From NCBI GenBank assembly GCA_040882355.1, contig JBBEBM010000077.1:1-58147 (forward strand): 58,147 bases of DNA, read 5' to 3'. Below the pieces are notes generated by a model, which was not told where the DNA came from, made no database searches, and was given only the letters and a program-made list of their open reading frames with translations. The translations under genes were made by a program, and so were the position numbers. Shown here one piece after another: positions 4,524 through 9,199 of this stretch; the first letter of the stretch is position 1; every line of letters starts with the position of its first letter. This DNA comes from Dehalococcoidia bacterium. Lineage in GTDB: Bacteria; Chloroflexota; Dehalococcoidia; DSTF01; RBG-16-68-14.

Positions 4524-4883
4524 CTAGAGATAGAGGTGCTCCGACGGACGCAACTCGCCGCGAACAGGATCGACCGCAAGCCCCAGGATTTCGAGCGTCG
4601 TCACGCCGAGTACGGGTATGTCGCCATCGCTACCTTCCACCACGGGAACGGTACCCTCTGAGCCATTGATCTGGATGTAGGCGAGGCCCTGCTGCCGGTC
4701 GAGTACGCGGCCGTCCGCGGTTCGGAGGCTGCGCGTAAACTCCGCCTCGACCCCAATCCGCTGCCAGACTTCGGGCGGAAGGACGGTGAAGGTGGCGCCT
4801 GTGTCCACCATCAACAAGGTCTCCACCGTCCGGCTTCGATCGCCGGGCGAGGCTACTCTGACGATGACGTCGAGTCTGCCCAT
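4524..4883 (-). CDS. Retropepsin-like (clan AA) aspartic protease
   Basis: LMVDTGATFT catalytic motif, RTADGR flap, VLGVTTLEILGLAVDP C-terminal motif; 119 aa. Confidence 0.85.
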   Translation of the reverse strand: MGRLDVIVRVASPGDRSRTVETLLMVDTGATFTVLPPEVWQRIGVEAEFTRSLRTADGRVLDRQQGLAYIQINGSEGTVPVVEGSDGDIPVLGVTTLEILGLAVDPVRGELRPSEHLYL

Positions 4884-4887
4884 AATG

Positions 4888-5769
4888 TTAGCCCGCCTGG
4901 GCGGCCAGCTTTTGTTTCGTGTACTCGATCAGGCCGCCGGCGTTGACGATCTCCATCATGAACGGCTCGTAGGGCTTGGCGACGAAGACCTCTTCCGTCG
5001 TGAGGTCGACGATCTTGCCGCTGGTGAGGTCGATCTCCACCTCGTCGCCCGCCTCGATGGCGTCGACGGCCTCCGGGCACTCGAGCACGGGCAGGCCGAG
5101 GTTGATGGCGTTGCGAAAGAAGATGCGGGCGAAGCTCTTGGCGATCACGGCGCTGACGCCGCAGCCGCGCAGGCTGATCGGCGCGTGCTCGCGAGACGAG
5201 CCGCAGCCGAAGTTGATGTCGGCGACGAGGATGTCGCCGGACGCTACCTTCTGAACGAAGTCGGGTTGGTCGCTGTTCTCCATGCAGTGCGCGCCGAGCT
5301 CCTGCGGGTCGGTGGTGACCAGGTACTTCGCCGGGATGATCTGATCGGTGTCGATGTGGGCGCCGAACTTGTGGGCGTGTCCTCGCAGCGAACCAGAAGA
5401 CATGCCTAGCATCAGCAGGTCGGTGGGCTTCAGCTTGCCCGCCGATGGGTCGACCTCGAGTCCCATCGACTCGAGCGCGGTGACGCCGAGGACAGGGCTG
5501 TCCGTGTCCTCGCCGAAGATGACGGGGATCGGGCCGGGCGGCTGGCAGCCCTCCACCTCCACCAGGACAGAGCCAACTTCCCGCTCTATCGGCCGGCCTT
5601 CGATGGTGCGAAAGGTCCTCTTTCCACTGGGCTGTACCCCGAGACGGATGAGGACCGCACGAGGGATCAGCGTGAAGATGGCGCCCGTGTCGACGAGTGC
5701 TTCGACCTCGACCGGCTCGCGGCCGTTGGTCGCGAAGAAGAGCTTTACGGGTACATGCACGAAGCCCAT
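4888..5769 (-). CDS. leuD: Retropepsin-like protease fused in frame to 3-isopropylmalate dehydratase small subunit (LeuD part 4888-5403)
   Basis: N-terminal ~120 aa: LVDTGAIFT ... LGVTALESMGLEVDP. C-terminal: IDTDQIIPAKYL, NFGCGSSREHA, SFARIFFRNAINLGLP. The junction reads CTG ATG CTA GGC ATG with no stop. Confidence 0.9.
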   Translation of the reverse strand: MGFVHVPVKLFFATNGREPVEVEALVDTGAIFTLIPRAVLIRLGVQPSGKRTFRTIEGRPIEREVGSVLVEVEGCQPPGPIPVIFGEDTDSPVLGVTALESMGLEVDPSAGKLKPTDLLMLGMSSGSLRGHAHKFGAHIDTDQIIPAKYLVTTDPQELGAHCMENSDQPDFVQKVASGDILVADINFGCGSSREHAPISLRGCGVSAVIAKSFARIFFRNAINLGLPVLECPEAVDAIEAGDEVEIDLTSGKIVDLTTEEVFVAKPYEPFMMEIVNAGGLIEYTKQKLAAQAG

Positions 5770-7050
5770 CTAGACAGCTACCTTTCCAACGATCTCCTCA
5801 GGATGCACGATGCGACCAGCGATGGCGGCGGCAGCGGCGACGGCCGGGTTGACCAGGAACGCCTCACCCTTGGGGTGGCCCATCCGGCCCGGGAAGTTGC
5901 GGTTCGACGTGGAGACGCAACGTTCGCCCTCGCCGAGGACGCCGTAGTGGCCACCCAGACAGGGCCCGCACGTCGCGCCGCTCACCTGGCATCCGGACTC
6001 CGTGAACGTCTCGATCAGGCCCTCGCGGACCGCTTCGAGGAAGATGTCCTGCGTGGCGGGAATAACGATGCAGCGCACCCACTTCGCGACCTTCTTGCCG
6101 CGCATGATGTCGGCCGCCTCACGCAGGTCCTCCATGCGGGCGTTGGTGCAGGAGCCGATGAAGACCTGGTCTATCTGAATGTCCTGCTGCGCCACCTCAG
6201 CGATTGTCTTGGTGTTGCCCGGGCTGAAGGGCATCGCCACCGTCGGCTCGATCGTGGAGGCGTCGAACTCGTAGGTGGCGGCGTAGCGGGCGTCCGGGTC
6301 GGGGTCGTAGACCGTCCACGGTCGCTTGGCGCGCGGCCTCACGTACTCGAGCGTCACCTCATCGACGGGCACCATGCCGGTCTTGGCGCCGGCCTCGGCC
6401 GCCATGTTGGTCATCGTGAAGCGGGCGTCCATCGACATCTGCTTGAGCGCCTCGCCCTCGAACTGCATCGCCATGTAGGTGGCGCCGTCGGTGCCGATGT
6501 GGCCGATGGTGTGCAAGATGAGGTCCTTGCTGCGCGTCCACTTGCCCATCTTGCCGTGGTAGATGAAGCGCAGCGTCTCCGGCACCTTCATCCAGGTCTC
6601 GCCGGTGGCCATGGCGGCCGCGATGTCCGTGCTGCCCATGCCCGTCGCGAAGGCGCCGAGCGCGCCGACGGTCGGCGTGTGCGAGTCCGCCCCGCAGTAG
6701 ACGTCGCCCGGCACGACGTGACCCTTCCAGGGGAGCAAGATGTGCTCGATGCCGGCCTCGCCGACCTCGTAGTAGACGATGCCACTCTCCTTCGCGAAGT
6801 CGCGCATCACCTTGCACTGGGCGGCCGTGGCGATGTCGCGCGCCGGCGCGAAGTGCGACGGCACGAAGACGACGCGCTGCTTATCGAAGACCTCTTTCAC
6901 GCCGAGCTTGCGGAACTGCTCAATGGCGATGGGCGCGGTGATGTCGTTGGCCATCACCAGGTCGACCTTGACGTTGATCAGGTCGCCCGGCGAGACCTCC
7001 TTCTTACCGCTGTGCGCGGCGAGGATCTTTTCGGCGAGTGTCATGCCCAT
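5770..7050 (-). CDS. leuC: 3-isopropylmalate dehydratase large subunit
   Basis: MTLAEKIL, GADSHT, IGSCTNAR, CGPCLGGH and STSNRNFPGRMG aconitase-family motifs. Confidence 0.95.
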   Translation of the reverse strand: MGMTLAEKILAAHSGKKEVSPGDLINVKVDLVMANDITAPIAIEQFRKLGVKEVFDKQRVVFVPSHFAPARDIATAAQCKVMRDFAKESGIVYYEVGEAGIEHILLPWKGHVVPGDVYCGADSHTPTVGALGAFATGMGSTDIAAAMATGETWMKVPETLRFIYHGKMGKWTRSKDLILHTIGHIGTDGATYMAMQFEGEALKQMSMDARFTMTNMAAEAGAKTGMVPVDEVTLEYVRPRAKRPWTVYDPDPDARYAATYEFDASTIEPTVAMPFSPGNTKTIAEVAQQDIQIDQVFIGSCTNARMEDLREAADIMRGKKVAKWVRCIVIPATQDIFLEAVREGLIETFTESGCQVSGATCGPCLGGHYGVLGEGERCVSTSNRNFPGRMGHPKGEAFLVNPAVAAAAAIAGRIVHPEEIVGKVAV

Positions 7051-8368: not shown

Positions 8369-8815
8369 TCATGTCTCCTTCACCAGGTCGTCGAGCAAGA
8401 CGTACGGGATCTCCTTTACGCGGCGGGCGCAGCGCTCGTCATTGCCGACGATGGCGTCACACCCAGTGTGCAGCGCGGTCGCGACGATGGCCGCGTCGGC
8501 GAGCGAGAGCGAGAGTCTTGCGCGTATCTCGGCGGCCAGCCGCGCGATCTGTCTGTCCAGGCCAACGACCTGCACGCCCGGCCCGTCCAGCACGACTCGA
8601 ACCTGTCTCATCTCCCAGACATCGTCCTCGCGTATCGGGCGCACGAGCAGTTCCAGTTCTGTCACCACCGAGAAGATCGACTGCTTGAAACCATCCCTCA
8701 CCGCCCCGAACAGCCACTCGATCACGTCGAAGTAGGGTTCGGTGCGGTGAAGGTGGTAGATCAGCGCGTTGGTATCGAGGCAGATGCGACTGGCGGACGC
8801 TAACTGGTCTCTGAT
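8369..8815 (-). CDS. PIN-domain (VapC-like) toxin, start codon uncertain (possibly ATC)
   Basis: The frame extends upstream of the tracked ORF to RICLDTNALIYHL; also SVVTELELLV, LSLADAAIVATA and GNDE. No ATG/GTG/TTG lies between the upstream in-frame TAG and the first PIN Asp. Confidence 0.8.
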   Translation of the reverse strand: MRDQLASASRICLDTNALIYHLHRTEPYFDVIEWLFGAVRDGFKQSIFSVVTELELLVRPIREDDVWEMRQVRVVLDGPGVQVVGLDRQIARLAAEIRARLSLSLADAAIVATALHTGCDAIVGNDERCARRVKEIPYVLLDDLVKET

Positions 8816-9081
8816 CCGCTATCCTCCTCCTCGTCAAGATACGTGCCCCACGACCCGCGCACTTCACGCAGGTAGGCGTCGATCTCCTCCTTGGTCTTGC
8901 CGTAGTAGCCGGGCATCGAGCCCGCCGTGTACGAGACCCAGTCTTTGGGCCTTGGGTGCAGGATCAGGCGCAGGCTGTCCATCTCCACGGCTAGCTGGTC
9001 ACCCGGTTTCAGGCCCATCTCACGCACGAGGCGGGCTGGCAGCGTGATCTGGTACTTACTGCTGATCGTTGTTTTTGGCAT
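8800..9081 (-). CDS. AbrB/MazE family antitoxin
   Basis: TTISSKYQITLPARLVREMGLKPGD; SD GGAGG; overlaps the PIN gene; a longer start up to 9198 is possible. Confidence 0.85.
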   Translation of the reverse strand: MPKTTISSKYQITLPARLVREMGLKPGDQLAVEMDSLRLILHPRPKDWVSYTAGSMPGYYGKTKEEIDAYLREVRGSWGTYLDEEEDSGSETS

Positions 9082-9199
9082 CGGCTCAACCTCCGCAGAG
9101 ATGTAGGACAGGGCAGCTTCACCCACTCGGCGGCTGGGTTTGTTCCTGGCCGTTGAGTACGGTGCTTCTTCAGGGCGTTCCTGGTCTTTCACAGGCACG

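Follow-up and report, generated by a model that had tools for sequence, protein, structure and literature searches.

What is a retropepsin-like protease doing in front of LeuD, the small subunit of 3-isopropylmalate dehydratase, within one and the same reading frame? The question is raised by contig JBBEBM010000077.1 of an uncultured Dehalococcoidia-type bacterium, available as a draft metagenome-assembled genome (G000; 82 contigs, 93.9% complete); the window is the whole stretch of DNA analysed here, 58,147 nucleotides (nt) long. Three genes follow one another on the minus strand: leuC, a 293-codon open reading frame (ORF) that joins the protease to LeuD, and a free paralog of the protease (Table 1). 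As a first-pass annotation made from the letters alone had described, the leuC stop codon TAG (5772-5770) directly abuts the ATG at 5769 that opens the fused frame, and the free paralog with its VDTGA motif starts at 4883, 4 nt beyond the leuD stop codon TAA (4890-4888). Retropepsins are best known from viruses, where they release themselves and adjacent proteins from polyproteins; the few characterised bacterial relatives do other jobs. From sequence comparison and structural modelling, we give a probability of about one half to the reading that the fused ORF encodes a self-processing precursor, and self-cleavage appears to be the best-supported mechanism among those weighed below.

The fusion of protease and LeuD is real and inherited. 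A stop codon or an indel at the junction had been envisaged by the first-pass annotation, and neither was found: contigs from three sequencing runs (X1, X2 and X4) cross positions 5395-5415 with 0 differences. The comparison covered positions 4800-5900 in four runs of one study. The X1 contig, possibly the source of this DNA, matched the whole interval with 0 differences. The X2 contig (1697 nt) and the X4 contig (225 nt), which come from other samples, covered 4800-5760 and 5253-5477, respectively, and showed neither differences nor gaps. An assembly error was thus ruled out by the identical junction in contigs from three runs, albeit of a single study and with one run possibly being the source. 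The protease-LeuD architecture was also sought in other sequences. It was present in an identical 293-amino-acid (aa) protein from a Logan assembly (P0121) and in three fused variants with 92% (P0001, ENA), 95% (P0125, JGI) and 77% (P0002, NCBI) identity. Among the best 120 protein matches, 2 were full-length fusions and 118 were ordinary LeuD proteins of 163-169 aa. A degenerate pattern of the junction DNA gave 0 matches in a collection of genome contigs, from which the records of the window's own genome were perhaps excluded.

One could still suspect an artefact or a decaying gene, the joined frame stemming from faulty assembly or sequencing or else from recent damage that inactivates leuD, given the draft state of the metagenome-assembled genome and the existence of two LeuD proteins (P0122 and P0126) that are 98% identical to that of the window over 161 columns and have the ordinary 168-aa form. 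The junction shared by three runs tells against such an origin, as do four distinct fused sequences that differ by substitutions yet show no frame change. Moreover, LeuD is under purifying selection (ratio of nonsynonymous to synonymous substitution rates, dN/dS, of 0.13-0.33 versus relatives) and is the sole LeuD found. No second leuD was detected in the 93.9% complete genome, where the only other Aconitase_C match lies in one 950-aa aconitase frame. We regard this explanation as very improbable. In this genome, the sole coding sequence for LeuD is the 3' part of an ORF that begins with the protease and is coupled in translation to leuC.

Both halves of the protein match far beyond chance because they have curated-family matches and because the AlphaFold model matches LeuD and human immunodeficiency virus 1 (HIV-1) protease structures. 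The claim that a clan AA protease and a full LeuD share one frame was borne out, with both above curated cut-offs. By Pfam, motifs and fold, the N-terminal half is a clan AA retropepsin-like peptidase. PF13975 matched aa 21-100 with 30.7 bits (cut-off 28.2) and PF13650 matched aa 15-96 with 28.1 bits (cut-off 24.3). The sequence contains LVDTGA at aa 25-30 (VDTGA at 26-30), VLG at 93-95 and LGVTALE at 94-100, and Asp27 and G95 were invariant in 21 of 21 aligned domains. In the AlphaFold model, two confident domains, the N-terminal one with 10-residue block means of about 79-93, are separated by residues 117-124 with a predicted local distance difference test score (pLDDT) below 50. Foldseek aligned the N-terminal domain with HIV-1 protease chains (E-values of 2.6e-5 and up, template modelling (TM) scores of 0.65-0.69 on the target) and with a simian foamy virus (SFV) protease (TM score 0.73). 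None of the solved structures is from this protease family, the best being plasmepsin V (E 3.7e-4), human T-lymphotropic virus (HTLV) protease (2e-3) and Ddi1 (0.014), and protein-atlas matches were only to generic clusters of the 'aspartyl protease family protein' kind. The dN/dS values were 0.12-0.27 for the fused protease domain, compared with four orthologs, and about 0.09-0.10 for the free paralog. Judged from its sequence, the protease half is under purifying selection with its motifs kept and looks functional. The G+C content at third codon positions (GC3) was 0.83 and 0.77 for the proteases as opposed to 0.92 in the flanking genes.

The C-terminal half matched TIGR02087 (LeuD/DmdB small subunit) over aa 130-286, at profile positions 1-156 of 157, with 201.9 bits (cut-off 108.95); with 217.4 bits it did not reach the cut-off of the equivalog TIGR02084 (245.85). 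Foldseek related this domain to the LeuD structure of M. jannaschii (3vba; 54% identity, E 5.7e-18) and also to 2pkp and 1v7l. GCGSSREHA (G188-A196), within which we take GSSREHA to be the conserved motif of LeuD and aconitase swivel domains, was invariant in 8 of 8 aligned sequences.

Retropepsins such as HIV-1 protease are active only as dimers and cut at their own boundaries after hydrophobic residues. Homodimerisation, which the first-pass annotation had proposed, is likewise predicted for residues 1-132 of the fused protein, with an interaction prediction score from aligned errors (ipSAE) of 0.45, whereas the best of 3 controls scored 0.00. The contacts agreed to at least 87% among three runs, with a partner pLDDT of at least 82; in the calibration of the tool, the mark was reached by 20 of 30 solved homodimers and by 1 of 23 single chains. 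The modelled interface includes residues 27-32 from both copies, and the junction residues 117-125 are in contact with residues 53-54 of the partner chain, on what we take to be a flap strand by our mapping onto HIV protease. The model thereby supports homodimerisation of the protease half.

The junction reads ..TDLLML-G-MSSGSLRGHAHKFG, with the window showing ..LLML-G-M-S-S-G-S-LRGH.. around the linker. How the protease came to be joined to LeuD at this point can be followed by comparing the leuC-leuD junction in 11 relatives (Table 1). The GTDB family of the window comprises 16 genomes, three of which (G000, G009 and G012) have an ortholog of the fused domain. Two of these carry it as a separate gene between leuC and leuD, and the same order was seen in 2 of 17 metagenome loci returned (L016 and L017). 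The protease is separate from leuD in all four. After ..LLML (LKLW in G012), the separate proteases have a variable tail of 5-11 aa. In 4 of 4, the tail DNA includes a GGAG or AGGA placed 5-12 nt ahead of the leuD start codon, and in 3 of 4 there is an ATGA overlap. The window fusion has neither the tail nor the Shine-Dalgarno (SD) site. Given the separate protease gene in relatives, a stop codon and an SD-bearing tail were therefore lost in the window lineage. The lost stop codon suggested by the first-pass annotation thus holds as history, though neither as an error nor as the specific loss of the nucleotides TA; and the expectation that relatives might all have separate genes was not borne out, with four separate (G009, G012, L016, L017) and three others fused (P0001, P0125, P0002).

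A single origin of the LeuD fusion found no support in a quick tree, on which the approximately unbiased (AU) test rejected the four fused forms as one group (p about 1e-63). In a LeuD tree made without the junction columns, P0002 fell in a clade (Shimodaira-Hasegawa-like approximate likelihood ratio test, SH-aLRT, 99) with the separate-gene G009, G012 and L016. Both fused groups have the common junction x-x-[SA]-S-G-[STA]-L-R-G, and either recombination or parallel origin may account for them. Other small genes occur at the same place: in other genera of the family, an unrelated small ORF (about 100 aa; MYVRIRGWE..) lies between leuC and leuD in two relatives and survives as a 17-codon remnant in a third. 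Small genes seem to have settled at the leuC/leuD junction more than once. A match of G010 to residues 108-291 was considered as a protease remnant and rejected, the leuC-leuD gap there holding this unrelated ORF.

The following course of events fits best. A small retropepsin-like protease gene came to sit precisely where translation of leuC is coupled to that of leuD, and the window lineage then lost the short 3' tail of the protease together with its stop codon and the leuD SD site. LeuD is therefore now made as the C-terminal portion of a protease-LeuD precursor of 293 aa, coupled to leuC. What happens next is proposed: the protease domain would dimerise, as a retroviral protease does within its polyprotein, and cut at or near its own C-terminal boundary, presumably between ..DLLML and GMSSGSL.., whereupon LeuD, released with a near-native N-terminus, would pair with LeuC.

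The protease-LeuD fusion has many counterparts. A search for longer homologs returned 92 proteins, and 93 were analysed once P0125 had been added. All carriers seen are uncultured genomes or metagenome contigs, with source names of Dehalococcoidia, SAR202, Chloroflexota and once Bipolaricaulaceae. The domain formed the very start of the protein and was followed by at least 80 residues in 88 of the 93, and D-[TS]-G-[AS] was intact in every one of them (93/93). The partners belong to more than a dozen unrelated families, among them CoxS (26 clusters), ribosomal L1 (19), UvrB, DnaK, NuoD, aminotransferases, aldehyde dehydrogenase, HflX, GatB, TrpD, HslV-type proteins and LeuD. The C-terminal end of the domain is conserved as ..DPxxxxLVPVEGLL(M), and the partner begins within 0-10 residues. 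A full-length protease-L1 fusion was found in 3 of the best 80 rplA loci from species genomes. Fused and separate states were both seen at all five sites compared (LeuD, CoxS, aminotransferase, DnaK and UvrB). The DnaK fusion of G060 appears as the main DnaK there, being 76% identical to that of G007, with the sole other match being partial and 54% identical. Among the five exceptions to the N-terminal position, P0214 and P0215 (555-565 aa) have the protease at the C-terminus, behind IS605-type OrfB/TnpB domains (PF01385, PF07282).

Self-processing is inferred because the domain is nearly always first and all fusions retain its catalytic motif, and because the partners are unrelated save for their position, fused and separate states are interchangeable at the same site and some partners lack a start codon of their own. 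If the protease cuts itself off, losing the stop codon would be neutral, which would explain why fusions recur and persist. In P0168 and P0235 the protease precedes an HslV-type protease (..GLLM-KMNRFHA-TTIIAV..). HslV-type enzymes need a free N-terminal Thr, so that this partner must be N-terminally processed by some route.

Alternatively, the fusion could be a stable two-domain protein that stays uncut, in which the dimerising domain is a passenger, creates a new quaternary structure or brings a second activity to LeuCD. Although short, the linker is modelled as disordered. For LeuD, the fusion has been kept over 23% sequence divergence, and the fused forms of CoxS and L1 have diverged to 60% and 57% identity, respectively, which marks the architecture as long-lived. 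In aconitases and fungal Leu1, moreover, the LeuD-like swivel domain is by nature attached through its N-terminus to a preceding domain, so that LeuD may tolerate an appendage left in place there. A stable fusion, however, requires that a dimerising appendage of 120 aa be harmless on at least 12 unrelated proteins or complexes, including L1, NuoD, a linkerless DnaK and UvrB. It also leaves the catalytic motif kept in 93 of 93 proteins, needless for a passive or purely structural domain, and the N-terminal bias of 88 in 93, unexpected for a general-purpose module. We consider a stable fusion unlikely, albeit worth keeping in mind.

LeuD might also be made free by internal initiation at Met123 (or Met120), the full-length fusion being a minor, tolerated by-product of the lost stop codon. 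The source record indeed annotates a 171-aa LeuD from Met123 (P0123), whose codon (5403-5401) lies inside the linker. A Met at positions -1 to +3 of the junction occurs in 59 of the 88 N-terminal fusions (none in the other 29), the ..VEG.. codons of several paralogs spell GAGG 6-9 nt before the junction Met, and an SD-like tetramer preceded this Met at 4 of 10 fused junctions read as DNA, by our own reading. Internal initiation could accordingly supply some of the partners. Neither does an SD site seem obligatory in this genome: by a crude test with unverified starts, an SD-like tetramer preceded the first start in 24 of 43 high-GC3 frames of the window (background 0.15) and was missing in 19. 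The 24 frames show, on the other hand, that SD sites are in use in this organism.

In the window itself, the 14 bases at -18 to -5 before Met123 contain no SD-like tetramer (GGAG, GAGG, AGGA or AAGG), in agreement with the first-pass annotation, which had seen no clear SD for this Met, and as opposed to the separate-gene relatives, 4 of 4 of which have one before leuD. Residue 123 reads M/V/M/A across the four fused forms, with V in P0001 and A in P0002 (the latter read as protein only), and the internal start is therefore not conserved. Coupling to a terminating ribosome is impossible because there is no stop codon, and the junction of the G060 DnaK fusion (..RLAL followed by KVIGIDLG) has no start codon at all. 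We judge internal initiation as the main source of LeuD to be improbable.

Besides the tethered swivel domains and the junction methionines, several observations weigh against self-processing. The confidence of the dimer model was possibly helped by memory of solved retropepsin dimers. The nearest NCBIfam model to the protease, TIGR03698 (clan_AA_DTGF, AF_0612 type; E 7.9e-11), has a cut-off of 57.35, which was reached by neither the fused domain (42.2 bits) nor the free paralog (42.5 bits); with its score under the curated cut-off, the domain was not assigned to this family. The separate ortholog of G009 (L005:1928-2326; 75% identical) has DTEA in place of DTGA and is otherwise intact; either this copy has lost its catalytic function or the change reflects an error in sequencing. 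In G015, a protease-like copy without the Asp motif (L044:1246-1605; ..PATAGTKAAF..; no Pfam match at E <= 1e-4) lies directly upstream of a protease-CoxS fusion; from its sequence, it appears to be the dead member of a tandem pair whose other member is intact. The two cases suggest that retention of the gene does not always depend on catalysis.

In its logic, the closest system to a self-processing protease-LeuD precursor would be the retroviral polyprotein. The retropepsin fold, the D-T-G-A motif and the placing of protease and cargo in one polypeptide are common to Gag-Pro-Pol and the present ORF. Here, however, the gene is cellular and bacterial, the cargo is a subunit of a housekeeping enzyme and the cleavage is a prediction. 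With the protease as the first domain, only a C-terminal cut would be needed, unlike in a retroviral polyprotein. Ubiquitin-ribosomal protein fusions, pestivirus Npro and alphavirus capsid likewise have a small N-terminal domain that is removed at its own C-terminal boundary. They resemble the fusions described here in having an unrelated protein behind, and the ribosomal partner recurs (L1 here); their folds and catalytic classes differ, and ubiquitin is cut in trans by other enzymes, which makes this an analogy only.

Peptidases of the COG5550/TIGR03698 (AF_0612) type are free ORFs of about 120 residues with DTG, whereas the domain here shares a reading frame with LeuD and, in related bacteria, with a large number of further proteins. 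Single-domain prokaryotic clan AA ORFs of about 120 residues are described as little known in an earlier survey (Llorens et al., 2009; PMC2642776). RimB of Pseudomonas trims polyglutamate tails (PMC11957791), RimB and RloA are cytoplasmic or secreted retropepsin-like enzymes encoded in an operon with functional partners, and a RimB-RimK hybrid exists (PMC11957791, PMC12239564). They are bacterial and retropepsin-like and encoded among functional partners, as here, but serve one dedicated partner system instead of many unrelated housekeeping partners. Pfam and NCBIfam gave no link between the window protease and the RimB/RloA family. APRc of Rickettsia is reported to undergo Asp-dependent autolytic processing and to accumulate as a dimer (PMC4140852); it differs in being an outer-membrane protein that processes surface autotransporters and in having no fusion to a metabolic enzyme. 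Our search, which did not extend to subscription journals, found no literature on retropepsin-like domains fused to Chloroflexota housekeeping proteins.

The protease is at home in operons well beyond leuCD. Four further paralogs in G000 lie inside operons, on the same strand as their neighbours and with tight junctions: at coxM/coxS (with a 4-nt overlap), at aroC/aroK-aroB, after a gene for an FAD-dependent oxidoreductase and after ruvA. Their GC3 was 0.72-0.74 as compared with 0.82-0.93 in the neighbours. In relatives, free copies occur at rplK/rplA, purM/purH, a PAC2-family gene/hemB and grpE/dnaK, and before uvrB. ORFs at flanking loci were called by a simple script, and the Pfam check was limited to the genes named. 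The domain was present (E <= 1e-10) in 49 of 151 sampled genomes of the class, with up to 20 matches per genome. The paralogs are 27-43% identical to the fused domain, and orthologs stand at the same sites across genera and families. We saw no support for a recently mobile element, terminal repeats not having been searched for.

The protease-LeuD fusion may thus be one case of a general Dehalococcoidia/Chloroflexota habit of placing the protease 5' of housekeeping genes, either coupled or fused, and the protease-first proteins of related bacteria suggest an undescribed bacterial polyprotein habit. More tentatively, retropepsin-like autoproteases could be lodgers 5' of Chloroflexota housekeeping genes that are expressed by the host operon, as coupled genes or as self-cutting N-terminal fusions. 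They would form cellular polyproteins in bacteria, in which the protease travels along at the protein level much as an intein does, and would be a possible analogue or relative of the retroviral-protease mode. In any case, an intact retropepsin-like domain precedes essential proteins in the coding sequences of a bacterial class (LeuD here; L1, DnaK, UvrB, NuoD and CoxS elsewhere in Chloroflexota-type sequences), and sister genomes have the same protease at the same spot as a separate, translationally coupled gene. If self-cleavage is true, bacteria would for the first time be seen to apply the retroviral polyprotein principle to cellular housekeeping, with implications for the origin of retroviral proteases, and the domain would provide a natural self-removing N-terminal tag. 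If the fusions are uncut, a dozen core machines carry an unexplained dimerising appendage.

Table 1. Features of the leu locus in the window, protease paralogs and fusions elsewhere, and states of the leuC-leuD junction in relatives. Plain coordinates are positions in the window; those with an L prefix refer to flanking loci.
Feature	Location	Strand	Basis or remark
leuC, 3-isopropylmalate dehydratase large subunit, 426 aa	7050..5770	-	TIGR02083 623.1 bits (cut-off 610.65), PF00330 E 1.1e-104
293-codon ORF, retropepsin-like protease in frame with LeuD (stop included)	5769..4888	-	Pfam, TIGR02087
Clan AA (retropepsin-like) protease domain, aa 1-121, ending ..KPTDLLML	5407..5769	-	PF13975, PF13650, Foldseek
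Predicted catalytic Asp27-Thr28-Gly29	5683..5691	-	Motif conservation
Junction/linker, aa 122-128 (G-M-S-S-G-S-L), candidate cleavage region	5386..5406	-	Low pLDDT
LeuD domain, aa 129-293, archaeal-type small subunit	4891..5385	-	TIGR02087, 3vba match
Free retropepsin-like paralog, 119 aa, VDTGA	4883..4524	-	PF13975 37.4 bits, PF13650 32.9 bits
G000 paralog	L034:3220-3603	-	Contig C4
G000 paralog	L035:3160-3540	+	Contig C26
G000 paralog	L036:3009-3398	-	Contig C60
G000 paralog	L033:3015-3377	+	Contig C5
DnaK fusion	L067:650-2887		G060
UvrB fusion	L069:989-3403		G100
Aldehyde dehydrogenase fusion	L068:1292-2935		G067
CoxS fusion	L054:3037-3870		G010; also G001, G015
Pterin-4a-carbinolamine dehydratase fusion	L037:3018-3725		G009; also G015
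Class-III aminotransferase fusion	L038:2992-4698		G009; separate gene with 4-nt overlap in G001
Separate protease gene between leuC and leuD			G009, G012
Unrelated ORF of about 100 aa at leuC-leuD junction	L011:1190-1500		G008
Unrelated ORF of about 100 aa at leuC-leuD junction	L012:2007-2282		G010
17-codon remnant of the ORF of about 100 aa	L009:1447-1500		G004
leuC and leuD directly overlapping			G001, G002, G006, G007, G015
leuC-leuD junction lost at contig end			G014

The free paralog of the window is 41% identical to the fused domain and has orthologs located after leuD in G012 and G014. In G012 it is extended to 178 aa (L004:1242-1778), running in frame into a small Cys-rich ORF (..NWRESxLP..CCGxxGxPGC) to which no Pfam family could be given in G012 or G001; in G001 this ORF is separate, 54 aa long and placed right after leuD (L002:2015-2179).

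Elsewhere in the window, a cimA/leuA-type synthase is encoded at 567-2165. A PIN-domain protein (PF01850, E 1.2e-12; 8369-8725, minus strand) and an AbrB/MazE-type antitoxin (PF04014, E 1.9e-9; 8800-9198, minus strand) are encoded side by side 1.3 kb upstream of leuC, and the two genes are likely a VapBC-type toxin-antitoxin pair.

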